Assembly (NCBI GenBank): GCA_040954595.2
Contig: CM082584.2
Location: 4,096,110 to 4,160,109 of the forward strand
Length of the DNA: 64,000 nt
Direction: 5' to 3'
DNA from: Balanoglossus misakiensis
Lineage: Eukaryota > Animalia > Hemichordata
The position numbers and the translations under genes were made by a program. The notes beneath the pieces are model-generated. The model was not told where the DNA came from. It worked only from the letters and a program-made list of their open reading frames with translations, and did not search any database. Positions 6,284 through 63,335 of this stretch are shown here, piece by piece (positions within the stretch are counted from its first letter, which is position 1; each line of letters starts with the position of its first letter).

Positions 6284-9200
6284 ATGGCCGAAGCAATGCC
6301 TAGTGGGAGTTTCCTCCAACAGCGCATAGATGAGAAAATCCTCTTCTGTCCGATCTGCCAAGAACGGATGGTGAAACCCAAAAGTCTACCCTGCATACAC
6401 ACCTTCTGTGAGAAGTGCCTCCAACAATGGGTGCAACAGAAAGGAGGCAGACTTGAATGTCCGACGTGTCGACGTACGTGTCCACTCCCGCAGGCAGGGG
6501 TCAAAGGTCTCACTAACAATTTTTTCATCAATGACCTGATTGAACTATTTGACGAGTTGCAGGGCAACCCCGGCGAGACCGTATGCGATTTGTGTGCCAG
6601 AAAAGCGAGCTGTTGGTGTCAAGAATGCGCCCAGTTCTTTTGTGATGGATGTCGGCGTACTCATTTGAAAGCAAGGGTGTCAAGAAACCACAGATTCATG
6701 TCTATGGAAGAATACAACGCTGTGGCTGAGTCTGGTCGTGATCACCTGATTCGTCCCCGATTCTGCACAGTTCATCAAGACAGTCAGCTCAAGTTATTCT
6801 GCCAACACTGTCAGGTGAATGCGTGCATTGAATGTGCAGTGACCGTTCACAAGGGCCGGGTGCACAATCTGGTGTCGTTAGAAGATGCATTGGAAGAGTT
6901 CGACCCAGAGTTGCAAGACAAAGAAAATGCAGTGTCAAATAGGGTATTTTCACTCCGAGAAAAACAACAAGAGGCAACCAAAGATATAGAAGATATTGAC
7001 AAAAACGGAAGTCAGGTTGTGCGTCAAATCAGACATAAAATAGCAGAAATGAGAAATCTATTGCAGAAAGAGGAAGACAGGTTGGTGGAAAAGGCGTTGG
7101 CAATGAGTGGACAGATGAAGAAAAACAGGCAATCAGAACTGGACCAGATAGAATTCGATCTAGCCTCTGCAGAAAATTTGTATGTCTACACACGAAATCT
7201 GCGGACACACGGCAATGCAGCTGATATACTTTCCCAGAAGAAAGAACTGATGCAGAGATTGAATGAAATCATAAATGATCGTTCAGCAGACCGATACGTC
7301 CCCCCACAAAACAGCCATCTTGTTTTTCAAGAGAACAGCCAGTGCATGCAACTTTCTCTTGGAGAAGTAATCAACCAATCAGAAGTGACACATGCTGCAC
7401 GTGTCAGCCAATCAGTTGATCGACAGATAGTACAACAGCAACCTGAGGCAACGACCGAGAAATCTGTGATTAAAAGAGAAATGACCGACCAATCCGGGGT
7501 GTCAAGTATGTCACGTGTCAGCCAACCAACTGTCGAGAGGAAACAACAAAGACCTAAGACTCTGGCCCAGAAAACTTCTGCTCCTGGAGTTGTTACTGGT
7601 AATACATGTATGCCAATGGGAACTATGGACGTTAAATTTGTTGGATGGATTTATATTACATATACGTTTGCAGATGGAATACAAGGAGTAAGTAGTACAA
7701 TGAAAACGGTTTGAGCTGCACAGAAGGAATGTACTGACTATCGATTTGTTTATCAACATAGTCAAAAGAAAACACGCTTTTCGCATTCAAGGTTAGACTT
7801 GCTCCAATGCAAGTCTATAGGCTTAAATTTCAGCAAAATTTGTTCCGATTTAATATAGCGTGTGTGGAGTGAACGCATTAAGTTGTGGCATCGCGATAGT
7901 GATGAACAGTAACCGAAACTCAGTAACAAAATTCAACCAAGGCAAACAAATGTATGAAGGGTAATGAGTAAAATTAAGAAACGAGGAACACCTGAATTAG
8001 TCAAGCGAATAGTGGGCTAGTCTAATCCAAGGTGAAGATGAAAAGCCACGACTAGACCACAATGCATGCTTTAGTGATAAGAATGTATCACCCTAAACAA
8101 TCTGTTATGAACTGTAACAATGAAAAAAAATCACTGGTCTGTACATTTATTCTGTGCATCTCAAACACCCTTTTTACCGTTGTTGTATATGTTTGAAGTA
8201 ATGGTTTGGCTAAATGCGTTACATACCTTTGCAGTCCCGGCTTCTCTGTTTAAGTAAATTTTGAACTGTTCCTGTCTTGTCAATATCAATGTCAATATGG
8301 GGTATGATATAGAGGGTTGAAATGTGGTCATGTTTAGTCTTGCTGTTTCATTCACACACACACGAACACTTATCGGCTATTATATCGACTTAGTTAACTT
8401 CTTCGCAAATAACATTATTAATATTCTTTTGTCAAACTTGGTATGCTAACAACAGAGATTCATGTATCAATACAAATTATTCACGCTACATGAATAAGTG
8501 TATCGGAAATGTTTCCTTAATGTCATCATAAACCTGAAAGTTTTGACAGAAAAAGACAGCCAGCCCATCTTGACTTGATGGCCGAAATCGCACAGAAAAC
8601 GCTACAATCCATGTGTAGCTACACTTCATTGTTAGTGATGTTTTCGACTGTCACATTTTGATGATCAAAATGAAAGGAAACAGTCACCTCCCAAAATTGC
8701 ACCTTCATGATTTCACCTTTTGTGGAAGGAATCAGATCATAATTGATATGAATATTTATTCTCCGCACAATCCAATATTTATTCTTAAAAGTTCAGTTAT
8801 ACACGCATCAAACACGAATGATAACGCAACGATTGGTGGGGAACTAACCAAAGCCACACGTCTTTCTCAATTTTCAAAAGTTGAAATGTTGACGAGCGCA
8901 TGTTGTTTGTTTGAGAGAGAAAAATCTGCCGAAGCACCCTCAACGGCTGTACGTAAGTGTGTGTCTGCCAAGAGAGTAACAAACTCCGCGATCTAGGAAA
9001 CATGGGTTTATATCTTTCAAATTATTCCCTCAGTAAATTTTCTGCCAGATTCCAGTGTGGTAAACAATTATTTATATTTATTACACCTGATACGACATAA
9101 ATCAGGACAACGTCATACAATGCTTCACAAGACTTGAATTATTATTTTAAAATTATTATTTTGTTTATTTTATCAACTCAAAAATAACTAAATACATATA

Positions 9201-11969
9201 AATTTGTAAATAGGTTTTTTATAAGTAGCCAAATTTTATTGTTGTATGACTAATAAATCATACGTTATTGTTACTATTTATTTTTCATTTCCAAACCCTA
9301 CATCTAATCAAGTATTTGTGTGGTTTAGAATGATGTTTATTGCTTTGAATCCTTTGTCAGAAATATTTTGATTTCGTCATATAATTTTGGTAAAATCCGA
9401 CACCAAACTTTACAAATTTAAAGAGTAAGTACCAAAACTCCAAAGTCACGTGATTTGATGCTGCTTGTGTTGCAGTCTGAACATCCAAACCCTGGACAGC
9501 CATACAGAGGTGGTCAGTTCAATGGATACTTAGAGGACTGTGATGAGGGTTGTGAAGTGCTGCGGCTGTTGAGGATTGCATTTGATCGCCGACTGACTTT
9601 CACCATCGATGGGGAATCAAACAAAGTAGTCTGGAATGGCATAACACATGAGCAATACAGGTAAGTTTGATTTCCATTATTGCTATTTCATCACACTGAC
9701 ACCCATTTAATTTCAATTAACCAACAATACGTAACTTTTTTGCGATGTGTATCAGAAATTTAAAGGAGTCTTCAATCATGTCAGCTCTTGTTTCCCTGTG
9801 TGGTTTTGATGGTGAACTGGGAGAAAAAACATACATTGTAGGTCATTGGAATAATTATCAAAATTAAAACAACACCGTTCCGGTGCCAGGAAAAGAGACA
9901 TGTAACGTGAAATACATTTCGAGATCTCTATATGGAATGATTTTATGGAAATGCATAGGAATCCAGCCCTGAAGGTCTAGGTCTCTGCTAGTGACAAAAG
10001 TGTACATACATAGGTTATAGCAAAAAAAAACTAAAATCAAAGTATTTTGATCAGTTAGCCAACAAATCAATAGTACCACAAGTCAAAATAGCAACGGCAA
10101 AGAACAGACATGTATTGAAGCTCATTGAACATGTTTGAGCTCACCCGCTGATGGTGATAGTATCTGTGCAGGTAACCATCTTACTTAATTTTCACGTCTT
10201 TTGGTTTCATTGAACTACGCCTCTCGCACCTGAGTGTGTTCCTTGTAATGGGTACTTATGACGTCAATAATCAAGTTATCAATTCTTTCACAATATTTAG
10301 GGAATTGAAAATCAAAATCTATATCTAGACACATTCTTATGTGACTCTCACTCAGACAGAAACGACTTGCGCACGTACCTATAAAATTGTTGTAATATTG
10401 ACGAAGGGGATATCAACATGTTTTATTACAAACACATCCATTCGCAAGTAATTGTGTGACTGTCACAACGTGACACGTCATTGTAACTTGGAGTATAAGT
10501 CAATTGTGCAATATGTCATTTTAGAATACACAACTATAAGCATGTGTAATTCGAATGATCAACCTGCAATCCATTGATTGACACCTAATGGCCATTCTGG
10601 TTCCCCAAAGTGGCTAATACAAATATTGCAGTGGCATAATTTATTCCAGTAAACGTTTATAAATCCAAGTTGCGTCCAACCCATCAATCATTGGATATCT
10701 TCGATTCTGCATCTGTCCATCGCGATAAATTGATGCAGATAGAGAACATTAACGTTTCACATGAGACAATTAAGGCTTAACCAAATACCCATTGCCTCTA
10801 GTAAAACCTAAATGTATAATTTTGAACGAAACCATGCAGCTTTCGTTCATAGCACACTTTCAACTCATATCGAAGCCGTGGAAATCATGGGTACTAGTAT
10901 ATTCTTCTAAAATTGTTATACTTCATACTGGAACACAATTTTGAAATACCTATAGCTGTACTATGATGCAGATAGAAAACATTAGGGCTTCTAACGTGAC
11001 AATGAAACAAATACTAATTGCCAGATGGTAAAACTAACATGTATAGTTTTGATTGAAACCATCTGGCTTACGTTCATGGCACACTTTCAACTCATATCGA
11101 AGTCTTGAGAATCATGGGTATATTCTTCAGAATTGTCATACTTCATTCATACTGGGATGGAATTTTGAAATCACTACATTGTATTATATGGTTGTCGTTT
11201 GCATACTTACCCGAGTTAAATATATTATTCCACGTTCACTGGGATCATACAAAATAAACATAATATGTCTAGTTTTCAGTCCAAACACAAGACAGAATTG
11301 AGGTTTAACAGCTCATTGGACGTTCTTTGCCAGGGGGTGCTCAAGAAATTGTGTTATTACACAAATTATTTGTACTCAATGCCATGAGGCATTTGGCAGC
11401 TTCATTTGCACAAATATATCACTAATACGCTGCACATCATTTTAGAGTTTATAAACAGAGTTGTAAAATTTTCCAAATGCTAAACGTGTTAGTCAAGAAT
11501 CTAAGTACAGTTAATGTCATCACATATGAACAGGTATATTAGTGCCAAGTGTGGAATATTATTTCCTTCTATATCATGGACTAGGCATTGGTGAGATCCA
11601 ATTATTAAGTGAGGTGTTATTTTTATCATGTCACTTTTAGGGTATAACTTCCTTCACAGAAGAGCACAATGCTGTATTATTGTTATAAAACTTTGTTCTG
11701 TACTGTAGTTGTGTATATTTGACATCTCCAATTAATTTAATAATATTTCAATGTTGGCAACCAACAGTGGTTTGGCGTCACGGACCATCAAAATTATTAT
11801 TAGCTGCACAACGCGTACCACACACTTGTGGGAGTGAAATCATTTCGTGAACAGTAATGGGAAAACTAATACATGTAATACTACACATTTATATTTATCC
11901 AGGTTTTGTGACTGGCCATCTTATGTTTCAAAAGTGAAGAAAGAATTGGCTGCAAAAGGAGTGGTGTAA
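6284..11969 (+). CDS. TRIM-DTC copy 1: RING/B-box1/B-box2/coiled-coil + Deltex C-terminal-like domain; exons 6284-7687, 9476-9660, 11903-11969 (551 aa)
   Basis: C3HC4 RING (CPIC..LPCIHTFCEKC..CPTCR), two B-boxes and a heptad region. DTC signatures GTM..ITY.FADGIQG|SEHPNPGQPY..EG.EVLRLLRIAFDRRLTFTI..WNGITH..|..SYVSKVKKELAAKGVV*. GT-AG junctions have compatible phases (0, 2). Confidence 0.88.
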
Positions 11970-15002: not shown

Positions 15003-18000
15003 ATGGCCACCGCAAACCCCGGGAAATCGTTTTCACAGCAGTTAATGACCGACATCGATGAGAAGATCTTGATTTGTCCAATCTGTCAAGATCGGATGAC
15101 GAGACCCAAAATTCTACAGTGCGTGCACACCTTCTGTGAGAAATGTCTCCAAAAATGGGTCAGACAGAGAGGAGGTACCCTCGAATGTCCGACGTGCCGC
15201 TTTGTCACTCCGCTTCCCGAAAAGGGGGTCGAAGGTCTCGGTAATAACCTATTCATCAACGATATTATCGACATCTTTGACAAGCTGCAACCAACTGCTC
15301 CAGATTCGGTGACCTGTGACCTCTGTGACAAAAAAGCTGACAACTGGTGTAAAGAATGCGCTCAGTTCTTATGTGATGGATGTCACCTTACTCATCTGAA
15401 AATGAGAACCATACAACATCACAGAATTTATACGATGGAAGAGTATAACAACATGGCCGAGTCTGGTCGGGATCACCTGATTCGTCCAAGATTCTGTGCA
15501 GTTCATCAGGACAATCAGCTCAAGTTATTTTGCGACCACTGTCAGAATACAGTTTGTATTGAGTGCGCAATAATTGGTCATAAAGGCACTGCGCACAACT
15601 TGGAATCGCTAGAAGATGCATCGAAGAAATACACTCCCGAGATGCAAATCCTGGTCGACAAGTTAGCAACCAAAGTGTCTTCACTCCGCGAAACTCAACA
15701 AGAGACAGATAGATTCATCCAAGAATACAACAAAAAGAAGAGCAAGGTGCAACAGCAGATCAGACAGAAAGCATCTGACGTCATCAAACGAGTCCACAAA
15801 GAAGAACAGCGATTGCTGGATGAAGTAACGGCAATTGATGGAAAGATCATGAAGGAAGTGCAGGCAAAGGTCGAAAAACTGGAGTTTGATCTCGGCTGTG
15901 CCGAAAACATGAATGTCTACTCGCGAAGTCTGCTGCAACACGGCAATGCAGCTGATATACTTTCCCAGAAGAAAGAACTGATGCAGAGATTGAATGAAAT
16001 CATCAATGACCGTTCAACAGACCGATACGTCCCCCCACAAAACACCCGCCTTGTTTTTCAAGAGAACAGGCAGTGCATGCAACTTTCTCTTGGAGAAGTA
16101 ATTGACCAATCAGAAGTGACACATGCTGCACGTGTCAGCCAATCAGTTGATCGACAGATACTACAACAGCAACCTGAGGCAACCACCGAGAAATCTGCGA
16201 TTAAAAGAGAAATGACCGACCAATCCGGGGTGTCAAGTATGTCACATGTCAGCCAACCAACTGTCGAGAGGAAACAACAAAGACCTAAGACTCTGGCCCA
16301 GAAGACTTCTGCTCCTGGAGTTGTTACTGGTAATATGCCAAAGGGAACTATGGATGTTGATGATAGTTGGGGGCTAATTATTACATATAGGTTTGCAGAT
16401 GGAATACAAGGAGTAAGTAGTACAATGAAAACGATTTGAGAAGCACAGAGGGAATGTACTGACTATCGATTTGTTTATCAACATAGTCAAAAGAAAACAC
16501 GCTTTTCGCATTCAAGGTTAGACTTGCTCCAAGTCTATAGGCTTAAATTTCAGCAAAATTTGTTCCGATTTAATATAGCGTGTGTGGAGTGAACGCATTA
16601 AGTTGTGGCATCGCGATAGTGATGAACAGTAACCGAAACTCAGTACCGAAATTCAACCAAGGCAAACAAACGAATGAAGGGTAATGAGTAAAATTAAGAA
16701 ATGAGGAACACCTGAATTAGTCAAGCGAATAGTGGGCTAGTCTAATCCAAGGTGAAGATGAAAATCCGCGACTAGACCACAATGCATGCTTTAGTGATAA
16801 GAATGTATCACCCTAAACAAACAATCTGTTATGAACTGTAACAATGAAAAAAATCACTGGTCTGTACATTTCTTCTGTGCATCTCAAACACCCTTTTTAC
16901 CGTTGTCGTTGTATATGTTTGAAGTAATGGTTTGGCTAAATGCGTTGCATACCTTTGCAGTCCCGGCTTCTCTGTTTAAGTAAATTTTGAACTGTTCCTG
17001 TCTTGTCAATATCAATGTCAATATGGGGTATGATATAGAGGGTGAAAAGTGGTCATGTTTAGCACCTAAGTCTTGCTGTTTCATTCACTCACACGAACAC
17101 TTATCGGCTATTATATCGACTTAGTTAACTTCTTCGCAAATAATATTATTTTTTTTTGTCAAACTTGGTATGCTAACAACAGAGATTTGTGTATCAATAC
17201 AAATTATTCACGCTACATGAATAAGTGTATCGGAAATGTTTCCTAAATGTCATCATAAACCTGAAAGTTTTGACAGAAAAAGACAGCCAGCCCATCTTGA
17301 CTTGATGGCCGAAATCGCACAGAAAACGCTACAATCCATGTGTGGCTACACTTCATTGTTAGTGATGTTTTCGACTGTCACATTTTGATGATCAAAATGA
17401 AAGGAAACAGTCACCTCCCAAAATTGAACCTTCATGATTTCACCCTTTGTGGAAGGAATCAGATCATAATTGATATGAATATTTATTCTCCACAGAATCC
17501 TATATTTATTTTTAAAAGTTCAGTTAATACACGCATCAAACATGAATGATAACGCAACGATTGGTGGGGAACTAACCAAAGCCACACGTCATTCTCACTT
17601 TTCAAAATTTGAAATGTTGACGAGCGCGAGTTTTTGTTTGAGAGATAAAAATCGGCCGAAGCGCCCTCAACGGCGGTACGTAAGTGTGTGTCTGCCAAGA
17701 GAGTAACAAACTCCGCGATCAAGGAAACATGGGTTTATATCTTTCAAATTATTCCCTCAGTAAATTTTCCGCCAGATTCCAGTGTGGTAAACAATTATTT
17801 ATATTTATTACACCTGATACGACATAAATCAGGACAACGTCATACAATGCTTCACAAGACTTGAATTATTATTTTAATTTTATTATTTTGTTTAATTTAT
17901 CAACACAAAAATAACTAAATAGATATAAATTTGTAAATAGTTTTTTTATAATTAGCCAAATTTTATTGTAGTTAGTAGTATGACTAATAAATCATACGTT

Positions 18001-20403
18001 ATTGTTATTATTATTACTATTTATTTTTTATTTCCAAACCCTATATCTAATCAAGTATTTGTGTGGTTTAGAATGATGTTTATTGCTTTGAATCCTTTGT
18101 CAGAAATATTTCAATTTTGTCATATAATTTTGGTAAAATCTGACACCATACTCTACAAATTTAAAGAGTAAATACCAAAACTCCCAAGTCACGTGATTTG
18201 ATGCTGCTTGTGTTGCAGCCTGAACATCCAAACCCTGGACAGCCATACAGTGGTGGTGAGTTCAAAGGATTCTTACGGGACGTTGACGAGGGTTGTGAAG
18301 TGCTGGGGCTGTTGAGGATTGCATTTGATCGCCGACTGACTTTCACCATCAATGGGGAATCAAACAAAGTAGACTGGAATGGCATAACACATGAGCAATA
18401 TCTGTAAGTTTGATTTCCATTATTGCTATTTCATCACACTGACACCCATTTAATTTCAATTAACCAACAATACGTTACTTTTTGGCGATGTGTATCAGAA
18501 ATTTAAAGGGGTCTTCAATCATGTCAGCTCTTGTTTCCCTGTGTGGTTTTGATGGCGAACTGGGAGAAAAAAAACATACATTGTAGGTCATTGGAATAGT
18601 TATCAAAATTAAAACAACACCGTTCCGGTGCCAGGAAATGAGACACGTAACGTGAAATACATTTCGAGATCTCTATTTGGAATGATTTAATGGAAATGCA
18701 TAGGAATCCAGCCCCTGAAGGTCTAGGTCTCTGCTAGTGACAAAAGTGTACATACATAGATTATAGCAAAAAAAAACTAAAATCAAAGTATTTTGATCAG
18801 TTAGCCAACAAATCACTAGTACCACAAGTCAAAATAGCAACGGCAAAGAACAGACATGTATTGAAGCTCATTGAACATGTTTGAGCTCACCAGCTGATGG
18901 TGATAGTATCTGTGCAGGTAACCATCTTACTTAATTTTCACGTCTTTTGCTTTCATTGAACTACGCCTCTCGCACCTGAGTGTGTTCCTTGTAATGGGTA
19001 CTAATGACGTCAATAATCAAGTTATCAGTTCTTTCAAAATATTTAGGGAATTGAAAATCAAAATCTACATATAGACACATTCTTATGTGACTCTCACTCA
19101 GACAGAAACGACTTGCGCACGTACCTATAAAATTGTTGTAATGTTGATGAAGGGGATATCGACATGTTTTATTACAAACACATTCATTCGCAAGTAATTG
19201 TGTGACTGTCACAACGTTATACGCCATTGAAACTGGTTGCATAAGTCAATTGTGCAATATGTCATTTTAGAATACTCAACTATATGGGTAAGCATGCATG
19301 TGTAATTTGAATAATCAACCCGCAATCCATTGATTGACACCTAATGGCCATTCTGGTTCCCCAAAGTGGCTAATACAAATATTGCAGTGGCATAATTTAT
19401 TCCAGTAAACGTTTATAAATCCAAGTTGCGTCCAACCCATCCCTCATTGAATATCTTCGATTCTGCATCTGTCCATCGCAATAAATTGATGCAGATAGAG
19501 AACATTAACGTTTCATACATGACAATTAAGGCTTAAACCAAATACCAATTGCCTCTAGTAAAACCTAAATGTATAGTTTTGAACGAAACCATGCAACTTT
19601 CGTTCATAGCACACTTTCAACTCATATGGAAGCCGTTGAAATCATGGGTACTGGTATATTCTTCTAAAATTGTTATACTTCATACTGGAACACAATTTTG
19701 AAATCCCTATAGCTGTACTATTATATTACTGTCATACGCATGTTAACATGTGTTATACTATTCCACGTTCACTGGAATCATACAAAATAAACAGAATATG
19801 CCACTGTTGGACCAAACAAACAACAGAATTCAGATGTAACAGCTCTTGCACCTTATGTCTGGTGATGGTCAGGAAATTGTGATGTTGTGCAAATTATTTG
19901 AACTCATAAGATATTTGGCAGCTTCATTTGCTCAAATCTTACATTTATGACACTCATACTGCACATTATTTGAAAGTTTTCAAACGGCATTGTTCTCTTT
20001 CCAAATTATAAACATGTATAAGTCAAGAGTCTGGGTATAGTTAATGTTGTCGCATTGATGCCATCTGTAGAATGTGATTTCTTTTCTTGTATATCCTGTT
20101 ACTATAGGCAACAGTGAAATCCAATTATTAAGCGGAGTGTTTTTTCTATCACGTCACTTTTTATGTTCAACGTAACACTGAGAAGAGCACCATGCTTTAT
20201 ATTTGTAATAAAAACTTCGTACTGTGCTGTAGTGTATATTTGACATTTCCATTTAATGTCATAATCTTTAATCGTTAAGTCGTAGTTGAGAGTTACCAAC
20301 TACAGATTTGTTTATTTTATCCAGGTTTTCTTCATATGATGCTTTCTGGCCATCTTATTATGCACAAGTGAAGAAAGAATTGGCTGCAAAAGGAGTGGTG
20401 TAA
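15003..20403 (+). CDS. TRIM-DTC copy 2; exons 15003-16412, 18219-18403, 20325-20403 (557 aa)
   Basis: Same domain motifs and GT-AG phases as copy 1. C-terminus ..ITHEQYL|FSSYDAFWPSYYAQVKKELAAKGVV*. Confidence 0.88.
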
Positions 20404-45811: not shown

Positions 45812-45894
<83 letters not shown>

Positions 45895-45897
45895 TTT
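45812..45897 (+). repeat. (TTTA)n microsatellite
   Basis: Direct reading. Confidence 0.95.
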
Positions 45898-46046: not shown

Positions 46047-47849
46047 ACATTATTATACATCTAGTGCCGAGAACAATAGATTTTGGCGTGCAATAAAAAG
46101 CCTTATTATACACCTACTGCTGTAACCTATGGAGTTCCGTAATACAATAATTCGCGGTATCACCGTCCAATAATTATTCAAATGAGGACGCGGAGTCCCA
46201 TAACCCACAGGGTTATTGGACGCATATTTGACCTTTGACCTCACAGCTGTCTGATGTAAACAATGATGATATTGCACCCTACTCTCACAAAAAATTATAT
46301 AAAAAGTACACAGTCGTTATTAAACAAAATTATTGGTGGCCCAAGATGCGAAATAAGTCAAAATCCTCGATGAAATTTCAGTTAAAGGAATGTGTGAACG
46401 AACAGGCGAGCGCGTTCATCCCTGCAGCGTAGAACGTAGCGCGCGAGACATCGGCAGCTCGACACTAGCATCACCTGATGCGCGAGGTGAAGGCGCGTTC
46501 GATATGCAAATTACATCATGGCGGCGTCTGAAAACGAGAAAGTCCGATAGCGGCCTATTTATTCTTTATCGTTCATCAAGGACGTCCGGAAAAGGTGTAT
46601 AATAATAAGGTTATTCACAAAATACCGGGATTTATGTCCTCGTACATCGTACGCTTCGGTATTGTCCTCGACGCTGCGCGTCTCGGACAATACCTGCGCT
46701 GCACGATGTACTCGGACATAAATCCCGGTATTTTGTGAATAACCTTATACTACTATACGGAACGGTACGTACGGAACGCGCGTTAAATAAGTTTTAGGTT
46801 TCAAGGCGCCCCAACTCACCGTGTACAGGTATGCGTTGTTATGCGGACGGTTTCAAGATACCCCACTCCAACGCACGCGCACGTATGTAAACAAAAAAGA
46901 AAGATGGCTGCTCACTGAGCGGTTTTCGATCGATTGTATCGGCATTTTGGGCGTTTTGAAAGCCAAGTAACATGCAAAACAAGAACTATCGGAGATGTAA
47001 GATGTATAATAATAATGTTATTATGAAAATACCGCAAAGTATGCACTCGGACATTAGCGCCGGGCATCGCCCTCCGCTACGCGTCGGGCGATACTTGGCG
47101 CTAATGTCCTCATGCATACTTTGCGGTATTTTCGTAATAACCTCATATGATTTATTTTATTATTTCTATGACTTCATTAAAGTTGACTTTTTACAAATTT
47201 AACTTCTTTTTGCATGAGTATCAGGCAAATTATTCTCTCAATTTGTCATTTCATCCGTTCAGTCATTATTTTTCGTTTCATTTCAGTTTTTCATTCAAAT
47301 AATTTGCATGATTTATGTCATTGTTTCACTAAAGTTGATTTTTTAAGCATCTAATTTCTGTATATCCTTACAATATGAAATTGTGTGTACTCAAATTACT
47401 ATGAGGTTATTACGAAAATACCGCAAAGTATGCATGAGGACATTAGCGCCAAGTATCGCCCGACGCGTAGCGGAGGGCGATGCGCTGCGCTAATGTCCGA
47501 GTGCATACTTTGCGGTATTTTCGTAATAACCTTATTATTATACATCTTACATCTCCGTTAGTTCTTGTGTTGCATGTTACTTGGCTTTCAAAATGCCGAT
47601 ACAATCGATCGAAAACCGCTCAGTTGACTCAGTGAGCAGCCATCTTTCTTTTTTGTTTACTTGTGCGCACGTGCGTTGGAGTGGGGGCGCCTTGAAACCG
47701 TCCGCATAACAACGCATACCTGTACACGGTGAGTTGGGGCGCCTTGAAACCTAAAACTTATTTAACGCGCGTTCCGTACGTACCGTTCCGTACGGCTTTT
47801 TATTGCACGCCAAAATCTATTGTTCTCGGCACTAGATGTATAATAATGT
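46047..47849. repeat. Nested inverted-repeat (foldback) structure
   Basis: Outer arms 46047-46102 / 47794-47849. Inner arms 46756-47147 / 47400-47792. Self-complementary hairpins at ~46606-46748, ~47014-47142 and ~47404-47535. Confidence 0.9.
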
Positions 47850-50800
47850 CAGTTACACCAATTACCATGTCTAAAATTCTTACAAATGGCATTGACTACC
47901 CCCCCACCCCCCCCCCACCCCCCCGGGTATATGCAACACCTAACTATAAACAAAAGAGAACAAAAGCCCCATTTTTTTTTATAATCCAAGTTTAAGCAGT
48001 AAGTCATTTAACCCGGCGGCATCAAAAAAATAAAGCCACACCACACTTCCTACAGTCCTTTTTTCGGCAGTGGAGGTACAAAGTGCACACAAACGACTGT
48101 ACCTTAGAAGTCTAGGATGTTCTTATGCAGGGAGAAACTCTTATGTCCAGTGTCCAGTACAGAACAAATGAATGATCAAACTCGCATCTCTATAGGAGTA
48201 CCTTTGTATATTTATCACACGTGTATACAACATTTTTTTATGGTATGCCTCATATTTGTTTAAAAAAATAGCTCATAAAACTTAACTTTGTGAGGTTTAC
48301 TGGGAAAACTAGTTCAAAGATATCCGTAGTGCTGGCCAAATATTTGTGTTCCTACCAGAAAATTACATTATATGAAATCCAGGTGGCATTGTCAAGTCTT
48401 AGGAAAAAGTGCTTAGGAAGGCCATTGTACTGGGGGCGGTATAGACTCTCTCACAGCCCCTCTCGCTGTTCATGCAGGCTTATAGTCTGCTTGCATGTGT
48501 CGCTACACAACACCATATGGGGCTTCTCCTTTGCTAAACGGTTGAGGGCGCAATCAGTGAAGAGCCTTGTAGTGAAATGTGGGCTGTGAGAGAGTCTTGT
48601 ACTGGTAGTGCTTATAATGTAGGTACATGTATATTGTTAATGGACATTTTCACTCAAAAAGTCAAGAACATGAAAGAAAGATATTTTATTCCAGCAAAAA
48701 CACTGATTGGTGATGATGTCATTGTCAATTATTTTAAAACAGTAAGAAAATCCTCCAGCACCTCCCCCCCCCCCCCCCGCACCTCCCATGTGGCACCCGT
48801 CATATATCAACCATTACTTCAAAATACAAAGCAGTCACACACTGAATGCAACTGTCAATGATGCCAGTATTGATCATTTGTTTACTTGTCCACTAGCTCA
48901 TGATCAACTGCCAAAAAGTGTTTGGATGTAGAAACAAGTCTTTTTAAGCAATAACCATAATAAGTTTGCAAAATCAGTACATGCTCTTGTATAGGGAATT
49001 AGCTGGAAGATGTATTAGGCTGGTGAGAATGGAATATTGATAGTAAAGTTGAAATCATCTTCAACAGTTTTTTTCTGCAACATTTTTGTATCATGTCTGC
49101 CATTTCTCTCATTTGGCTATGGTGACTTATTCACAAATATAATTTCTATCGTTTTTGTTTTTTAATACACTTCCATTTATCTATTTATGTCATTTATTGT
49201 TCTCGCTTGATTTTTCCCCTACATTTATTTCTGTTTTTCATGTTAAAGTACTGTCCTTTTCCATGTTATCTGCTATTCTTTCGAACTTTTTAGGGTTTTT
49301 CCAAAAATTAACAATATTCTACTGTCCTGTAACTTCCTCTATTTGTAAAGTCGTGTTATTTTCAAAACTATACACTGTAATTACCATGCACTAAGCTGTT
49401 TTCTCTTTTAGTGTACAAAAAGTATGGCAAATACCATTATTTTCTTAAAAACTGAAAGTGGTTGTCTGCTCATCTCACCATGTACAGCAAATTAAGATGC
49501 TGATTGGTTAAATTGGAAAATTATATTTTATACCTTGAGATTATATTTCCCAATTCCCCAAATTTCACATCCACATTTTAGTATAAGTTGCTTACTTTTG
49601 ACATCATTTTGATCGTATTAGTTTCTTTTGATAGATGATTTATGTTGTTTGCTGAAAAATGGAAAAATCACTGCTTGTTACCAGTCACGATTGCTACAAA
49701 ATTGTGACTGGGCTGCATGGTTAACTTTATATGTCTTTGGCTGCAACTGAAAAATGAATGTACCAAACATGATGACACTACAGTAAATGATATTGTAATA
49801 GCTCTTGTCTCAGGGTGTGTAAGGGGGGCATTAATAAAATTCTTTGTTTTGCCACCTGTTTGCTGTTCATTTTTTCAGAGAAAATAAAATGCAGATTATG
49901 CTGTAGAATAAAAAAACACGATATTTTCCATACCGTTGACCATCCAATGAGAAACTGGGTTTATGTACTTACCCATACATTTTTATTTCCTTGTTTATTC
50001 AATTGTTGGCTGGGTAAGATTAGGGAAAATTGCTGATGGCTATAAACAAAGGATTTTATTTAATATGTGATCTCTTTTTTTCTGAATACCCATAACATTA
50101 ACACAAAACATTTTCCATATTTAGACAATGAGTGAGCAGTTACCTGGTACGAGCAGAACTGGGTGTTTTCCAAGGACAAGAATCCACCAACCAGGCAACA
50201 ACACTGATGTGACTACTTTATCAGAGACATCAGACAATAATGTTTTACCTGATATGTCTGAAACGGATATTGAAAACAGAAGTCAACGTCAAACTTTTAA
50301 CAATGATGAGGAAGGCTCTCAGGTACTGTATTTATATTTATATTGTCCTTCTTCAAACTCAGTGGTCTGCATTGTTTGTAAGTGTGTAGTTATTCAAGCA
50401 CATGGGTGATGCAAATTAAGTTCATTATCAGGCTGCATCGGAAATAAATTTGTAAACTATTTGGTGTTTAAATTTAGATGGGTTTTAGTCTACGTAGGTA
50501 ATTTAATAACGGATTGAGTAGGTCAGGTTAGTCAAAACTAGTATTGATTTGGTAACGTTTTTCACTCTGAAAATATCTATGTGTCCCTCCAGAAACTGTG
50601 TACTGTTAAGTATAATGACATCAACACCATTTGGTAGTTTGCCCTACTGTAGAAAGTAGGGACTGTGGCTATGGCTGTTTTAGATCATTCAGTCCATTTC
50701 TGTTGAGATTACAGATTCATTATATGCAACTGTTGAGGGCGCTGTTTTCATCTGTATTTCATCTGTGCTCCCTGTTTAGATACTAGTCAAAGTACTTGGG

Positions 50801-51172
50801 GACCGTCTGTAAACGAAATTCCCGATAGTCAAAGTACCTTGATGTACATAGGCTCCTCTCTGAAACCTTAGTTTCAGGGAGGAACCAACATCTAGGTACA
50901 AGACTTGCAACCTCTTGGCCCCTTTGAATGCAGATTAACAAACAAACAAATCTGCCGCATGGACTTTTTCCTAACCTGGTGTGACATTAATGATTTATGA
51001 ATTCTGGGCTTGATCATGAAGGTGACTAAGGGGTCAAAATGAAGCAATTGCCTCATCACCTCGGGCTTATAATTCCTTGGCAAACCCCTCCCCCCCCCCC
51101 CACATTTGTCCTGTATCGCCCGAGATGGGCTCCCTTGGGGATTAGATGACATCAACTGCTGCATCAGGGGTC

Positions 51173-51321
51173 CAGTGTTCTCCCCAGGAATTGAATTTCT
51201 GACAGAGTGGTTGCTAATTTACATAACAATATGGATAATTGTTATGTTAAAGAGTTTCTATTGTTTTCCAAAAATTACAGAGTGTTGGCTGTGCTCTGAA
51301 ATTGCTCTGGGGAGAACACTA
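51173..51321. mobile_element. Small TIR element
   Basis: AGTGTTCTCCCCAG ... CTGGGGAGAACACT inverted termini. Confidence 0.5.
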
Positions 51322-53346
51322 CAAGGGGGTCATATTGCATTGTCTGATTGCTAATGTCACCATACATGTCTGAATTTAATCAAGCAAGAACTATTATCTG
51401 TTAGTCTTGAAAATTTGTTATTCTGCATTTTCATAGATCATTATGAGTGTGATATGGGGTGGAGGTAAAGTTGGACTGGCTTATTATGACACTGAGACAT
51501 GCCATATTCATCTGATGATGGACATTGCAGAATCTGATGATTTTCCAATGACTAGAAGTGGTAAGATTCATTCATTTAGCTTGCGCCATTAGCTGTATCT
51601 TTTCGCTATGTTTTCAGCAGTTTTGTTTTGCGTACCTACTGCAGTTTCTTGTTCAAATTCCGGAAACACGATGAAATACCCAGTATTAAGCTTATCAACA
51701 CAAACATATATATGTATAGTCAGCATTGTTTATGTGCAAAACTTGAATTCAAGTCCGGACAAGAATTCATTTGTCAATAATAACAATGGCCTTTTATTAT
51801 ACACATACAGGCTATATGTTGACAACGGAGTATATTAGCATGCTATTTGGATCAGAACAAGAAATTGCATAACAAACATACTGAAAATACAGCCAAAAAG
51901 TTACAGCTATAAATGTTTCTTAAATATTCTGTGGAAATGTGCTGTTAGGAAGGGAGGGGCCATTCTGGTTTATTTTTGATTTGTTTGTTGTTGTTGTTGT
52001 TGTGTGTTTTTTTTTTGGGGGGGAGAGGAAAACTCTTTATATGTCTCACTGAGAATAAGTGACAGAAAAAAAACCCACTACCCTAAAAATATAATGGGAC
52101 TCCCACCCCCCTGAAAATATATAAATAATAGTGACACCTCCAGGTGGAATTTTCTAGATTGTCAAGTTTAATAAAAATTGTGTTGACAATATTATCAGCA
52201 GAAAAGTTAAAAAAGCTTGTAAAGGGTAAAGTGTTACTGCTATAATACATTGGTTGTTTACATGTCTTTGCCATTTTGGTGGACTGTTATTCACTACTCT
52301 CTCCTCTCCAGCAATTTTTTATTCTGTATTTTTCAAAATAATTTGTTCCGAAATTAGTTGGGAATGCATTCCAACTAATTTACCCCCACCATGATGATAG
52401 CATTTGATTCTGTGGCCAGAGAGCATTCTGGGATACATATCCTAATTGTATTTGAAAAGGAAATATCAGATTATTGTATGACAGAAATTGTTAAAATTTA
52501 AACTTCAAATCTGAAACTGCCATCCACTTTCCTCTGACAGACCAACTATAACAATATGATTGTCACAATATGTTTATGGCATTTGATGTTGTCTTTCTAG
52601 TCTGCCAGCCTTAAAGGAGACATCCTTTGATTCTTAAAGGGGCAATTTTCAATCCCTGGCTCTTGTTGATACTGGTTAAATGTTTATCTGGAGCAAAGCT
52701 GTTGTTTTCCATTGAAATCTTTATCAATCTATTTGCTTAAATTAGCTAAAGCTGACAAAGAAGGTTCCCCTTTAAAATGAGTCTTCGGAAATAACAAGTT
52801 CAGAGATTTCTAACACAGAATTTTTTTTGTCAGTTTCAAAGCAAATCATCCCAACATGTGTTATTACAAGCAGCAAACAAGATGAAAGAATGTTACATTG
52901 TCTGTCTGAAGAAGGTATGAACAAATCTGGATATTAATTGTTTGTGACAACCTTATGCTGAATATGCCCATAGTGGTTGAATTTGCCCTCTAGGACTTCA
53001 TATAGTACATGTACTAGTAAATACATTCTGATTAAAAGGAAAAAAATCACCAAGGTGCTTTTTCACATGATATGGCAGGGACCTCACACCAGGCTGTACA
53101 TATGAACAATTCATAGTCATATATGATGCTTAAATTGTGGTGATCAAAACACTTACTCGTGTTGTTTGTGCTCTCATCTCATGTCTGCCCTTTTATTAAT
53201 AACATTGAATTTCATTTTACAGTGACTGCTCTTCAAGAATCAACTAGTAACTCTGTCGATCTACAAATCTTGCCAAATATTGATTTCTGTGAGTATACCG
53301 TGATTAGAACCCCTAATTTACCTAATACATGTATAAGCAGTGTTAA

Positions 53347-53748
53347 GGATGTACGCACAGAACATAAACCGGAAACTGCGAGCACTCGTCTTTTTCCCAT
53401 AGGATTACATTGATAAACAAACTTCTACTATTGTCATTTTCACGAAATTTTACAAATAGCTCAGTCCAGTAAATATAAATTCATTGGTCAAATAAAATAT
53501 AGGGGTCACTGCACTCTATTTTGAGATAAATTGCGTTAAAAATTTTGCCCATAGACAAACCATTGGTGAAAAATGCTGAGTCAGCAATTTTCTTCTATTA
53601 TCGACTAAATTCATGGCTCTGTATTTCAAAAACAAGCACGGTGACCCCTATATTTTATTACGGATTTTCATTATACATACAAAGGAGAATCCAAAAATCC
53701 ACAATTAAAAAAAATTACAATACTTTCAATTTTACTGAACGTACATCC
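53347..53748. mobile_element. TTAA-flanked Kolobok-like MITE
   Basis: TTAA-GGATGTACG ... CGTACATCC-TTAA, with an internal inverted pair AAAATATAGGGGTCAC / GTGACCCCTATATTTT. Confidence 0.75.
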
Positions 53749-55919
53749 TTAATGTAAACTTTAAGAACTTCATGATGAAATTATATAAGGGCTCCAAAAC
53801 ATGAATCATGGCAACAATGGTCTATCATTTATGTAGTGGAATAGATAATATAATTGTTTTAAAATATTTATGGTGTATAAAGTCATTCAGATATTACCTG
53901 TATGTGTTGTTGCATTACTGCAAACTTTAGAGGCCGAAAATAACTGCAAAGACGCATCTCCATTTGTTATGCGTTTCTGTGAAATATTAATGTCTCATTT
54001 TGTTTTCATCAAAGCCTTGGAAGCTAGCAAGAGGAGAATCATGAATTTAAATCTATCCTGTGTCCCGGATCACTATACTGAAGATCAAAGACTTATTTAT
54101 ATGTCTTCATTAGTGCCATTCGAACAAATCAACATGGTAAGGTGGTTGGTGAAATAGTCATTGATATACCGGTATAAAAGAGCAATGTTTTCATACACAG
54201 TTTTTTATACTGAGCAAAATCCAACTAGGACCTAGTCATAACTAAAATAATCCTTACTGGTGAATATATTTGGTCCATGTCCACCTTTACTTGAAGTCAG
54301 TGCCTTTATAAACGTCATCACCAAAGTCAAAGATAAACTTTGTATGATGACAATGTATTCACTCAAAGTGAAAGTTCAGAGGGACCTATACTGAAATTGC
54401 AAAAGTATGGTAAAACATGCACAAATAGTTGTCCAACACGCAAACAAATTGATTGTGGATGTAACTTTATTTCATTATACACTGATTTCTAGTGTTCAGG
54501 ACAGTAGATGTATAATAATCATGTATACTGGTGGTAGTAAATAAAAGTTAGATGTCTGTAGGATCAGAATTTTCCAGCATTAATGGAAGTCATGTGTTAT
54601 AGACTTTTCACATTGTATTCATGTTTCAGGTGCGTGCAGCCGGTGGTTTGCTGAAATATTTGGATAAGAACAGAATTGGAGTGGAACTTGAAGATCAAAG
54701 TGTCAGAGTTCCAGTAATTGGTCTTCAAGTATTCACTTTGTAAGTAGACTTTAGTGATTTTGCTGCTGTTATTGAAACAAAACATGTAGTGTCTAAAAGG
54801 GGCAAAGTTGCTCTCTTTTGACCTTTTTATGCTCCCATGTCATACTTGGGGAGCAGGGGTTGGGGAGGGGGTATGTACATGTATATGGCAGGGGGATATT
54901 CGTATAGCCTGTCTGTATTATGTATAAAGGGGAGAACCATTTGATTTCGGGGGGGGGGGTGGGGTGGGGTGGGGGGAGATTTTATAGTTTTCATGGTTTA
55001 GTATAATCCATGTATAGCATGGTACAGTACTCTCGTATCTAACACACTAAACTGTAATAATATATATAAAAAAAGGGCATCTAAAATTCTTACGACGGGG
55101 GTATTAAAAAGACCCTGTTTATAATAAATGCTGCAATATTTCTCAATGCTAACATGGTCACAACCACTTCCCTTCGGCTCTAAATGTTGTGAAGTGCAGT
55201 TTTGTTTGATATGAAAAGTTGTCTGTATTGTTTGACTTCTTGAAACATGCTTAAATATTGGTCAACTGTTAAAGAAAACTGTTAAAAACTCGACTCTGCC
55301 AGTAGACAGAATAGATTAAACTTTAATTTCAAACACATGGCCATAACTTGATCATTGATCATGTGTGTTTTTTGGTATTTTTGGGGGGTATTTCTATACT
55401 TCATGTTGTTGTTGTTGTTGTTTTTAATCTAGTGATTGAGATTGTCTTGTTGAATCTTTTAGGAACTAGATGTTAATGGTTGACCACAATACTTACAATG
55501 CCTTGCAGATCTTTCAGAAGGAACTTCATCCATCCATTTATAAATTTGGCAGCAGTGGTTCAAAGGAAGGTTTGAGTTTATATGGTAAGTTATTGTGTAC
55601 ATGTATTATCATGTCATACATGTACTTCAGTCAGTCTCATTATATTGAACACCTATTGCCTGGCCATGAGGGCCATAGCAGCCGTTTATTACCCCCAAGG
55701 GGCTGTGAGTTACCAGAATCACATGCTACATGTATTTCCATATTTTTTTCTGCTATTTCCCTAGGGATTCATTCTATTCATATCATGTGACAGATTCTGG
55801 CAAATCACGTCACAGTATTAGCATGGGGTATACATGTATTATAAAATCCAATATGGTTGTCAAGGGGCAATTTCATGATCAATTTTCTATGTCTGGAGTG
55901 ATTACTAAGATATGCCTTT

Positions 55920-57937: not shown

Positions 57938-60900
57938 ATGGCCACCGCAAACCCCGGGAAATCGTTTTCACAGCAGTTAATGACCGACATCGATGAGAAG
58001 ATCTTGATTTGTCCAATCTGTCAAGATCGGATGACGAGACCCAAAATTCTACAGTGCGTGCACACCTTCTGTGAGAAATGTCTCCAAAAATGGGTCAGAC
58101 AGAGAGGAGGTACCCTCGAATGTCCGACGTGCCGCTTTGTCACTCCGCTTCCCGAAAAGGGGGTCGAAGGTCTCGGTAATAACCTATTCATCAACGATAT
58201 TATCGACATCTTTGACAAGCTGCAACCAACTGCTCCAGATTCGGTGACCTGTGACCTCTGTGACAAAAAAGCCGACAACTGGTGTAAAGAATGCGCTCAG
58301 TTCTTATGTGATGGATGTTGTCTGACACACATGAAGTTACGAACCACAAGAAATCACAAAGTCCTAACCCTGGAAGAGTATAACAACATGGCCGAGTCTG
58401 GTCGGGATCACCTGATTCGTCCACGATTCTGTGCAGTTCATCAGGACAGCCAGTTGGAACTCTTCTGCGACCACTGTCAGAAAACGGTTTGCGTGAAGTG
58501 TGCAATAATCGGTCATAAAGGCACTGCGCACAACTTGGAATCGCTAGAAGATGCGTCGAAGAAATACACTCCCGAGATGCAAATCCTGGTCGACAAGTTA
58601 GCAACCAAAGTGTCTTCACTCCGCGAAACTCAACAAGAGACAGATAGATTCATCCGAGAATACAACAAAAAGAAGAGCAAGGTGCAACAGCAGATCAGAC
58701 AGAAAGCATCTGACGTCATCAAACGAGTCCACAAAGAAGAACAGCGATTACTGGATGAAGTGACGGCAATTGATGGAAAGATCATGAAGGAAGTGCAGGC
58801 AAAGGTCGAAAAACTGGAGTTTGATCTCGGCTGTGCTGAAAACATGAATGTCTACTCGCGAAGTCTGCTGCAACACGGCAATGCAGCTGATATACTTTCC
58901 CAGAAGAAAGAACTGATGCAGAGATTGAATGAAATCATAAATGATCGTTCAACAGACCGATACGTCCCCCCACAAAACACCCGCCTTATTTTTCAAGAGA
59001 ACAACAAGTGCATGCAACTTTCTCTTGGAGAAGTAATCGACCAATCAGAAGTGACACATGCTGCACGTGTCAGCCAATCAGTTGATCGACAGATACTACA
59101 ACAGCAACCTGAGGCAACGATTGAGAAATCTGCGATTAAAAGAGAAATGACCGACCAATCCGGGGTGTCAATTATGTCACGTGTCGGCCAACCAACTGTC
59201 GAGAGGAAGCAACAAAGACCTAAGACTCTGGCCCAGAAGACTTCTGCTCCTGGAGTTGTTACTGGTAATATGCCAAAGGGAACTATGGATGTTGAAACTA
59301 AATCATGGGGCGAATTTCTTATTTCATATCAATTTGCAGATGGAATACAAGGAGTAAGTAGTACAATGAAAACGTTTTGAGCTGCACAGAAGGAATGTAC
59401 TGACTATCGATTTGTTTATCAACATAGTCAAAAGAAAACACGCTTTTCGCATTCAAGGTTAGACTTGCTCCAAGTCTATAGGCTTAAATTTCAGCAAAAT
59501 TTGTTCCGATTTAATATAGCGTGTGTGGAGTGAACGCATTAAGTTGTGGCATCGCGATAGTGATGAACAGTAACCGAAACTCAGCACCGAAATTCAACCA
59601 AGGCAAACAAATGTATGAAGGGTAATGAGTAAAATTAAGAAACGGGGAACACCTGAATTAGTCATGCGAATAGTGGGAATAGTCTAATCCGAGGTGAAGA
59701 TGAAAAGCCGTGACTAGACCACAATGCATGCGTTAGTGATAAGAATGTATCACCCTAAACAATCTGTTATGAACTGTAACAATGAAAAAAATCACTGGTC
59801 TGTACATTTCTTCTGTGCATCTCAAACACCCTTTTTACCGTTGTCGTTGTATATGTTTGAAGTAATGGTTTGGCTAAATGCGTTGCATTCCTTTGCAGTC
59901 CCAGCTTCTCTGTTGAAGTAAATTTTGAACTGTTCCTGGCTTGTCAATATCAATGTCAATATGGGGTATGATATAGAGGGTGAAAAGTGGTCATGTTTAG
60001 TGCCTAAGTCTTGCTGTTTCATTTACACACACGAACACTTATCGGCTATTATATCGACTTAGTTAACTTCTTCGCAAATAACATTATTAATATTCTTTTG
60101 TCAAACTTGGTATGCTAACAACAGAGATTCGTGTATCAATACAAATTATTCACGCTACATGAATAAGTGTATCGGAAATGTTTCCTTAATGTCATCATAA
60201 ACCTGAAAGTTTTGACAGAAAAAGACAGCCAGCCCATCTTGACTTGATGGCCGAAATCGCACAGAAAACGCTACAATCCATGTGTGGCTACACTTCATTG
60301 TTAGTGATGTTTTCGACTGTCACATTTTGATGATCAAAATGAAAGGAAACAGTCACCTCCCAAAATTGAACTTTCATGATTTCACCTTTTGTGGAAGGAA
60401 TCAGATCATAATTGATATGAATATTTATTCTCCGCAAAATCCAATATTTATTCTTAAAAGTTCAGTTAATACACGCATCAAACATGAATGATAACGCAAC
60501 GATTGGTGGGGAACTAACCAAAGCCACACGTCTTTCTCACTTTTCAAAATTTGAAATGTTGACGAGCGCGAGTTGTTTGTTTGAGAGATAAAAATCTGCC
60601 GAAGCGCCCTCAACGGCTGTACGTAAGTGTGTGTCTGCCAAGAGAGTAACAAACTCCGCGATCAAGGAAACATGGGTTTATATCTTTCAAATTATTCCCT
60701 CGGTAAATTTTCCGCCAGATTCCAGTGTGGTAAACATTTATTTTTATTTATTACACCTGATACGACATAAATCAGGAAAACGTCATACAATGCTTCGCAA
60801 GACTTTAATTATTATTTTTATTTTATTATTTTGTTTATTTTATCAACTCAAAAATAACGTAATACATATAAATTTGTTGATAGTTTTTTTTTATAATTAG

Positions 60901-63335
60901 CCATATTTTATCGTAGTATGAATAATAATTCATACGTTATTGTTATTATTATTATTATTACTATTTATTTTTTATTTCCAAACCCTACATCTAATCAAGT
61001 ATTTGTGTGGTTTATAATGATGTTTATTGCTTTGAATCCTTTGTCAGAAATATTTCGATTTCGTCATATAATTTTGGTAAAATCTGACACCATACTCTAC
61101 GAATTTAAAGAGTAAGTACCAAAACTCCCAAATCACGTGATTTGATGCTGCTTGTGTTGCAGCCTGAACATCCAAACCCTGGACAGCCATACAGTGGTGG
61201 TGAGTTTGAAGGATACTTACGGGACGATGACGAGGGTCGTGAAGTGCTGCGGCTGTTGAGGATTGCATTTGATCGCCGACTGACTTTCACCATCGATGGG
61301 GAATCAAACAAAGTAGTCTGGAATGGCATAACACATGAGGAATACATTAGGTAAGTTTGATTTCCGTTATTGCTATTTCATCACACTGACACCCATTTAA
61401 TTTCAATTAACCAACAATACGTTACTTTTTGGCGATGTGTATCAGAAATTTAAAGGGGTCTTCAATCATGTCAGCTCTTGTTTCCCTGTGTGGTTTTGAT
61501 GGCGAACTGGGAGAAAAAACATACATTGTAGGTCATTGGAATAGTTATCAAAATTAAAACAACACCATTCCGGTGCCAGGAAATGAGACACGTAACGTGA
61601 AATACATTTTGAGATCTCTATATGGAATGATTTAATGGAAATGCATAGGAATCCAGCCCTGAAGGTCTAGGTCTCTGCTAGTGACAAAAGTGTACATAAA
61701 TAGGTTATAGCAAAAAAACTGAAATCAAAGTATTTTGATCAGTTAGCCAACAAATCAATAGTACCACAAGTCAAAATAGCAACGGCAAAGAACAGACATG
61801 TATTGAAGCTCATTGAACATGTTTGAGCTCACCCGCTGATGGTGATAGTATCTGTGCAGGTAACCATCTTACTTAATTTTCACGTCTTTTGGTTTCATTG
61901 AACTACGCCTCTCGCACCTGAGTGTGTTCCTTGTAATGGGTACTAATGAGGTCAATAATCAAGTTATCAATTCTTTCAAAATATTTACGGAATTGAAAAT
62001 CAAAATCTACATATAGACACATTCTAATGTGACTCTCACTCAGACAGAAACGACTTGCGCACGTACCTATAAAATTGTTGTAATGTTGATGAAAGGGATA
62101 TCGACATGTTTTATTATAAACACATCCATTCGCAAGTAATTGTGTGACTGTCACAACGTGACGCGCCATTGAAACTGGTAGTATAAGTCGAGTGTGCGAT
62201 GTCGTTTTAGAATACACAACTATAAGCATGTGTAATTCGAATGATCAACCTGCAATCCATTGATTGACACCTAATGGCCATTCCGGTTCCCCAAAGTGGC
62301 TACAAATATTGCAGTGGCATAATTTAATCCAGTAAACGTTTATAAATCCAAGTTGCATCCAACCCATCCCTCATTGAATATCTTCGATTCTGCATCTGTC
62401 CATCGCGATAAATTGGTGGAAAATAGCGAACATAAACGTTTCACATGTGACAATTAAAGCTTAACCAAATACCAATTGCCTCTAGTAAAACCTAAATGTA
62501 TAGTTTTGAACGAAACCATGCAGCTTTCGTTCATAGCACACTTTCAACTCATATCGAAGCCATGGATATCATGGGTACTAGTATATTCTTCTAAAATTGT
62601 TATACTTCATACTGGAACACAATTTTGAAATCCCTATAGCTACTATTATATTACTGTCATGCGCATGTTAACATGTGTTATGTATACTATTCCACGTTCA
62701 CCGGGATCATACAAAATAAACAGAATATGCCACTGTTGGACCAAACAATTGACAGAATTCAGATGTAACAGATCTTGTACGTTATATCTGGTGATGGTCT
62801 GGAAATTGCGATGTTGTGCAAATTATTTGAACTCATAAGATATTTGGCAGCTTCATTTGCTCAAATCTTACTTCTATGACACTCATACTGCACATTATTT
62901 TAAAGTTTTCAAACGGCATTGTTCTCTTTCCAAATTATAAACATGTATAAGTCAAGAGTCTGGGTATAGTTAATGTTGTCGCATTGATGCCATCTGTAGA
63001 ATGTGATTTCTTTTCTTCTATATCCTGTTACTATAGGCAACGGTGAGATCCAATTATTAAGCGGAGTGTTTCTTCTATCACGTCACTTTTTACATTCAAC
63101 ATAACACTGAGAAGAGCACCATGCATTATATTTGTAACAAAAACTTCGTACTGTGCTGTAGTGTATATTTGACATTTCCATTTAATGTCATAATCTTTAA
63201 TCGTTAAGTCGTAGTTGAGAGTTACCAACTACAGATTTGTTTATTTTATCCAGGAATATTTGGAATGATCATAATTACTGGCGATCTTATGTGGCACAAG
63301 TGAAGAAAGAATTGGCTGCAAAAGGAGTGATGTAA
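57938..63335 (+). CDS. TRIM-DTC copy 4; exons 57938-59353, 61163-61350, 63254-63335 (561 aa)
   Basis: Same architecture. C-terminus ..ITHEEYIR|NIWNDHNYWRSYVAQVKKELAAKGVM*. Confidence 0.88.

Follow-up and report, generated by a model that had tools for sequence, protein, structure and literature searches.

Can the C-terminal domain of a Deltex protein be turned into the variable binding head of a TRIM ubiquitin ligase? This question is raised by a gene cluster of the acorn worm Balanoglossus misakiensis, a hemichordate, in a window of 64,000 nucleotides (GenBank assembly GCA_040954595.2, contig CM082584.2, positions 4,096,110 to 4,160,109 of the forward strand). The window, which is the whole stretch of DNA analyzed here, holds four gene copies, A to D, with three exons each on the + strand. 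They encode a RING, two B-boxes, a coiled coil, a linker and a Deltex C-terminal (DTC) domain, and three short DTC segments, V1 to V3, differ radically between the copies.

We found that these segments are older than their flanks and also carry excess amino-acid change, in a DTC domain that appears to have lost its ordinary ADP-ribose pocket. Hemichordate immunity is barely described. No description of a TRIM-DTC fusion or of a diversified pocket-less DTC was found in the titles and abstract openings covered by the literature search, which did not extend to subscription journals.

Three variable segments in four gene copies

Both introns are GT-AG, in phases 0 and 2, and the four open frames are 551, 557, 558 and 561 amino acids long. 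Pfam zf-C3HC4 matches the RING in exon 1 of all four copies (E 2e-10 to 5e-10), zf-B_box matches two stretches of exon 1 again in all four, and in the two copies tested DTC (PF18102) matches exon 2 (E 8.5e-16 and 8.2e-17). The DTC also matched PDB 6Y22, 3PG6 and 6Y5N. The coiled coil after the B-boxes was judged via a Saccoglossus kowalevskii relative, P0125, which aligns to about residues 200-557 of the window proteins and has helices at 2-111 and 114-136, with a weak Foldseek match to the KAP1 tripartite motif. With RING, B-boxes and coiled coil all present, the proteins are assigned to the TRIM ligase class and predicted to have E3 activity. The exons are as follows, and a tblastn of the window with two copies as query returned no fifth copy.

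6284..7687, + strand: copy A exon 1, with RING, two B-boxes, a coiled coil of divergent type, linker and DTC strands 1-2; V1 at 7634-7666
9476..9660, + strand: copy A exon 2, with the DTC core; V2 at 9506-9553, first half of V3 at 9650-9660
11903..11969, + strand: copy A exon 3, with the second half of V3, the last helix and the stop
15003..16412, + strand: copy B exon 1; V1 at 16359-16391
18219..18403, + strand: copy B exon 2; V2 at 18249-18296, first half of V3
20325..20403, + strand: copy B exon 3
22699..24111, + strand: copy C exon 1; V1 at 24055-24090
25904..26091, + strand: copy C exon 2; V2 at 25934-25981, first half of V3
28490..28565, + strand: copy C exon 3
57938..59353, + strand: copy D exon 1; V1 at 59294-59332, a divergent B-box 1 tract near 58319-58370
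61163..61350, + strand: copy D exon 2; V2 at 61193-61240, first half of V3 at 61337-61350
63254..63335, + strand: copy D exon 3

V1 to V3 make up 49 of the 251 aligned columns common to all four copies and contain 35 of the 58 variable columns and 22 of the 24 columns with three or more residues. Every length difference in them is a matter of whole codons, the loops varying by up to 6 residues, and V3 straddles intron 2. Compared with the same segments of 90 ordinary DTCs, they are rich in W/Y/F (22.7% versus 12.6%), in W alone (5.0% versus 0.3%) and in D/E (18.2% versus 10.1%). These counts bear out a sequence-only reading of the locus, which had pointed to three radically different segments, to whole-codon length differences and to a richness in W, Y, F and D; all twelve segments that it had listed were found in place. 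Intron sliding as the source of the V3 length change is ruled out by the fixed donor and acceptor flanks.

The same reading had described the introns and the TRIM scaffold as almost identical between copies, which is correct in part. It holds for intron 1 (96-97% identity in all six copy pairs) and for the scaffold of B, C and D (95-96%). It fails for intron 2, where A and C share one type and B and D another, with 96% identity within a type and 88-89% between types, and for the N-terminal half of copy A, which is 57% identical to that of copy B over the first about 310 residues and 94% from the linker onward. The 3′ part of intron 2 has a long run of sites backing the A/C versus B/D split, and the signals in exon 1 and intron 1 are mixed. 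Copy A is a chimera in which a TRIM N-terminus of another, old kind, together with its upstream region (window 6284-7220), is joined to the common linker-DTC module, the heads having been swapped between scaffolds.

Exchange likely reached the scaffold of copy D as well. Its B-box 1 (58319-58370) has 10 residue and 6 silent codon differences from that of B within 40 codons and is likely a conversion tract from a divergent TRIM. Another version of B-box 1 at these positions is present in three sequencing runs. A short high-copy sequence lies at 59362-59413, starting just past the donor site of intron 1 and represented by 44-48 contigs in two runs. No repeats of at least 25 bases were found in 61100-63400, and a homologue search with the copy D linker gave no relative among 90 candidates.

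Selection was tested on the four sequences with GY94 codon models written for this analysis (F3x4, three topologies). With the V segments left unspecified, M2a is preferred over M1a by twice the log-likelihood difference (2dL) of 84-92 on 240 gap-free columns, and the 12-14 sites per tree with a posterior above 0.95 all lie within V1 to V3. An older segment can mimic positive selection, so a class with its own rate was added. Free omega and rate together beat a faster neutral class (2dL 15, p about 1e-4). After removal of 17 columns next to indels, where the alignment disregards the exon junction, the same test gives 2dL of 7.2-8.0 (p 0.005-0.007) with an omega of 4-5 and a rate of 2.4. With the stricter column set and one topology, five sites outside the V segments are also above 0.9.

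At the neutral rate, the V segments are 1.8-2.5 times deeper than the flanks, as expected if conversion homogenises all else. In V2, the conserved codons are nearly unchanged at silent sites (5/60) while the adjacent codons change residue. The proposed concentration of positive selection in V1 to V3 is in agreement with these models, the rate-only model being rejected in both column sets, with four sequences only.

Splicing of exons 1-2 and 2-3, on which the proposal of a variable head depended, is seen across both introns in contigs of one run. Three public runs of one sample contain part of copy D exon 1 and were aligned to copy D, with 15 of the 18 joints shown. In run X3, one contig joins 59353 to 61163 exactly at the GT-AG of intron 1, and in three contigs exon 2 is followed by 29-33 other letters and then by exon 3. 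Read by hand, they give three V3 versions, all in frame and absent from the window, in which 10-11 residues separate the fixed H from the fixed W; in the window this length is 7, 11, 11 or 13 residues. Thus there are seven V3 versions, all in frame and with the flanking H and W kept.

One of the X3 versions combines an exon-3 start similar to that of C (GLISYD versus GLLSYD) with the QY exon-2 end of A and B; another has the NIW exon-3 start of D behind a new exon-2 end. Such mixed pairings suggest that the V3 halves are re-paired through intron 2. In run X2, V1 is 9 bases longer than in D by the listed gaps, and one contig joins 61332 to 63296 with the intervening letters unresolved, which could represent a paralogue with another intron or a retrocopy. 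A further X3 contig joins the V1 start (59289) to exon 2 (61162) in frame with 6 letters between, possibly a short splice form without strand 2.

The remodelled Deltex head and its relatives

The ADP-ribose pocket of DTX2 consists of R535, S567, S568, W578, H582 and H594 (PMC7442474), to which DTX1 adds the equivalent of T585 (PMC7500938). We surveyed these positions in 150 representative DTC matches, leaving out 3 close relatives and 9 that lack the anchor motif. R535 is present in 128 of the remaining 138, S567 in 133, W578 in 135, H582 in 113 and T585 in 123. The four window copies have F at 535, a deleted S567 loop, T at 582 and Q, R or E at 585; their H594/GYPD loop is V3 itself, and W578 is the only pocket residue kept in all four. 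Judged by these residues, the ordinary pocket is dismantled. The RING that Deltex enzymes require beside the DTC is also absent, the sole RING lying about 380 residues upstream. Since there is no RING next to the DTC and the pocket residues are lost, the window copies fall outside the Deltex RING-DTC ligases.

The DTC fold is retained according to an AlphaFold model of P0125, in which the DTC blocks have a pLDDT of 74-98, with the minimum in V3, and which gives a Foldseek match to 3PG6 (E 3e-11). On this model, V1 corresponds to the strand 1-2 hairpin with strand 2, and V2 to strand 3. In V2, the selected sites take alternate strand positions on the side opposite from the old R535, which we infer to be the exposed face. 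Covariation over 146 DTC rows, a shallow set, recovers the R535-S567 and H582-E608 pairs, and the pairing of the V1 loop with the post-V3 helix is weak (z 3.8).

In mammalian DTX3L, the sites under selection are reported to form clusters on the surface of the DTC in a preprint (bioRxiv 10.64898/2026.04.23.720386). There, residues 620, 622, 659, 712 and 713 are fast-evolving, lie at the modelled interface with PARP9 macrodomain 1 and are interpreted as co-evolving with PARP9; this interface is a prediction. With the 3PG6 numbering set by H707, Y719 and E733 (PMC11460948), the five map by alignment to V1, V1, V2, V3 and V3, respectively. The equivalent of 659 is a column of Q/E/L/E, with a score of 0.96-0.97 in our selection test. 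The V-equivalent segments take up about 44% of the length of an ordinary DTC, and the five residues fall in three clusters, which puts the probability of a chance match at about 0.09. The strand alternation in V2 and this mapping are an indirect hint of one surface, and V1 to V3 likely form a single binding surface on the modelled fold.

The sequence-only reading had further proposed that a Deltex fold was co-opted as a variable head. This is strengthened by the pocket loss and accords with the kept fold and the selection in V1 to V3, with one correction on age: the TRIM-DTC fusion itself predates the cluster, being found in acorn worms and amphioxus.

The top word-index matches were TRIM-RING-DTC proteins of Ptychodera flava. 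A profile search added four proteins. One of them, the P. flava TRIM-DTC protein P0128 (XP_070563511.1), is 47-49% identical to the window proteins over the full length and has in common with them the pocket loss and the lack of a second RING. P0125 (XP_006820645.1), a partial protein, has the same remodelled head. P0130 and P0270, also of P. flava, keep the second RING with the pocket loop deleted. The short pocket loop occurs in 7 of the 146 database rows, namely these four, one Physella protein and two others.

In the tree, the window heads cluster with P0128 and P0125 (97/100), on long branches for which attraction is possible, and the TRIM parts cluster with P0128 (99/98) and then with P0270 (98/96). 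The database names of the relatives are automatic only, TRIM56-like or uncharacterized. TRIM-RING-DTC proteins with two RINGs and a largely intact pocket exist in P. flava, Glandiceps talaboti and Branchiostoma (gene models XP_070540305.1, XP_070540329.1, XP_077992667.1 and XP_078684009.1, from acorn worms and amphioxus).

From the sequences of these relatives, the head would have been remodelled stepwise from an intact TRIM-RING-DTC. The visible intermediates are this intact type, a loop-deleted type with the second RING and a loop-deleted type without it. The cluster expansion may be lineage-specific. P0169, a DTC of the snail Physella acuta on a long branch of its own, has lost the pocket loop in a similar way, and P0252, a TRIM-DTC of amphioxus (Branchiostoma), is without the second RING; DTC remodelling may have occurred more than once.

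A predicted sensor-ligase and its alternatives

The reading that we favor, with moderate confidence, is a sensor-ligase similar to TRIM5 and finTRIMs: the pocket-less DTC, with V1 to V3 under positive selection, would bind foreign proteins inside the cell and the N-terminal RING would ubiquitinate them. By the same analogy, the function may be immune, in pathogen recognition. The coiled coil would pair two chains and present two DTC heads, and each copy or allele would bind a different target via V1, V2 and V3. The contacts would be made by the strand 1-2 hairpin and strand 2 for V1, the exposed side of strand 3 for V2 and the loop formerly walling the adenine pocket for V3. As in TRIM5, the RING would then ubiquitinate the captured target or assemble a signalling chain. 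New variants would arise by point change, by whole-codon indels and by exchange from copy to copy via the near-identical introns, with the two halves of V3, split by intron 2, open to re-pairing.

A bolder version is conceivable though doubtful. In it, the Deltex domain has become an antibody-like head, with V1 to V3 on the side that faces the macrodomain in DTX3L and V3 assembled from two exon ends re-paired via intron 2. The outcome would be a heritable combinatorial repertoire of intracellular sensor-ligases, possibly against pathogen macrodomains or other ADP-ribose-pathway antagonists.

Several points weigh against the sensor-ligase. With the indel-edge columns removed, the omega of the whole DTC is 1.4-1.5 and significance is lost, and that of the V segments alone is 2.2-2.5 (p 0.03-0.08). 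Singly, V1, V2 and V3 give p of 0.04-0.34, none clearly significant. Silent change too is raised in the V segments (14/112 same-residue codon pairs versus 40/1088 elsewhere). The four sequences are few, non-independent and mosaic, so all these p-values are indicative only. A search with the P0128 head found, among 35 candidates, only itself and fish DTX3 and no P. flava paralogue. Lastly, run X3 was labelled 'DNA?' by guess, so its spliced contigs may be retrocopies.

The greater depth of the V segments fits also a history without adaptive diversification, where loops drift after the pocket loss and conversion from old divergent copies leaves a patchwork with homogenised flanks. Conversion from divergent donors is indeed evident in the intron 2 types and the copy D B-box 1 tract, and the omega of the framework and linker is only about 0.45-0.6. 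However, a difference in rate alone is rejected, the silent sites of the conserved V2 codons hardly change beside residue-changing neighbours, and fixed and variable positions alternate along the strand. In addition, the V3 versions all stay in frame with their flanking H and W, and the head is retained in three acorn-worm lineages. We hold drift to be very unlikely. Less so, but still unlikely, is a DTC with one fixed host job, such as docking a PARP9-like macrodomain, whose V1 to V3 change to escape pathogen antagonists or to track an evolving partner. Such a DTC is a target rather than a sensor; selection tests do not distinguish the two, and the co-evolution proposed for the equivalent DTX3L residues in the preprint suits it. 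The length changes and the new W/Y/F fit a gain of contacts better than escape, though, the pocket and adjacent RING behind DTX3L activity are gone, and several divergent heads stand side by side in one locus.

The binders may instead be aimed, in the germ line, at selfish elements of the own genome (transposon proteins or meiotic drivers) or at gamete or self markers. The array seemingly lies in a same-strand intron of a MutS-family gene, presumably MSH5, which has a meiotic role, and a retroelement lies directly upstream of copy A. But the intron nesting may be accidental and antiviral selection is associated with the ancestral Deltex/DTX3L surface, so we rate this, too, as quite improbable.

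If the sensor-ligase reading is true, a new fold would join the short list of variable innate-recognition heads, and a small-molecule pocket would have been rebuilt into a protein-binding surface with the intermediates visible. It also suggests that one DTC face has been drawn into conflict repeatedly, from acorn worms to mammals. Each variant is a domain of about 110 residues, so the ligand question is open to direct pull-down.

Genomic neighborhood and known systems

Two parts of MutS-family genes lie between copies C and D.

31531..42556, ends approximate, + strand: 3′ half of a MutS-family gene, downstream of copy C; Pfam MutS_III, IV and V on 6 of 10 fragments
50125..55787, ends approximate, + strand: seemingly the 5′ half of another MSH5-like gene, shortly before copy D; assigned by motifs, with no Pfam match

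We take both halves to be MSH5 from their motifs. As the 3′ half follows C and the 5′ half precedes D, the TRIM array seems to be nested in a same-strand intron of this gene. The entire locus seems to be present as two tandem copies, either through a duplication or because the assembly includes both haplotypes. Copy D may thus be an allele rather than a paralogue, which leaves the diversification unaffected. MSH5 and a TRIM cluster are both in the human major histocompatibility complex (MHC) region; no literature on an MSH5-TRIM link to the proto-MHC was found.

The retroelement upstream of copy A (1612-4877) has a minus-strand reverse-transcriptase frame with a weak Pfam RVT_1 match, and an inverted duplicate of 502 bases at 99.6% (1627-2128 and 4346-4847). 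It is presumably a Penelope-like element. Between the MSH5-like halves, a stretch of about 400 bases is repeated in inverted orientation with 92% identity (46756-47147 and 47400-47792), possibly a DNA transposon.

Compared with the DTX1-4 and DTX3L RING-DTC ligases (PMC7442474, PMC7500938, PMC11460948), the window proteins share the DTC sequence and fold and keep W578 and the E608 equivalent of the last helix. They differ in that R535, H582, T585, the S567/S568 loop and the H594/GYPD loop have been lost or substituted, the loop of the SLPG hairpin is shorter by about 10 residues, a TRIM forms the N-terminus and the DTC has no RING beside it. Mammalian DTX3L has fast-evolving DTC residues at equivalent places, but its pocket is strictly conserved and the change is between species in one gene, whereas in the window the pocket is dismantled and the change is between copies with indels. 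That preprint (bioRxiv 10.64898/2026.04.23.720386) contains no mention of TRIM, hemichordates or amphioxus.

The closest relatives, XP_070563511.1 and XP_006820645.1, likewise combine TRIM and DTC with a remodelled head; the intact acorn-worm and amphioxus type differs in retaining the RING-DTC and most pocket residues. In TRIM5alpha and the teleost finTRIMs, which are RBCC-B30.2 proteins, the head is not a DTC, and no Pfam SPRY match was obtained in the window pieces scanned. Moreover, one variable segment is split by an intron in the window, and any antiviral role here is putative. Nevertheless, finTRIMs show the same diversification pattern on their B30.2 head (PMC2657112): a TRIM scaffold, tandem expansion, recombination and selection in a few variable C-terminal segments are common to TRIM5alpha, the finTRIMs and the window copies.

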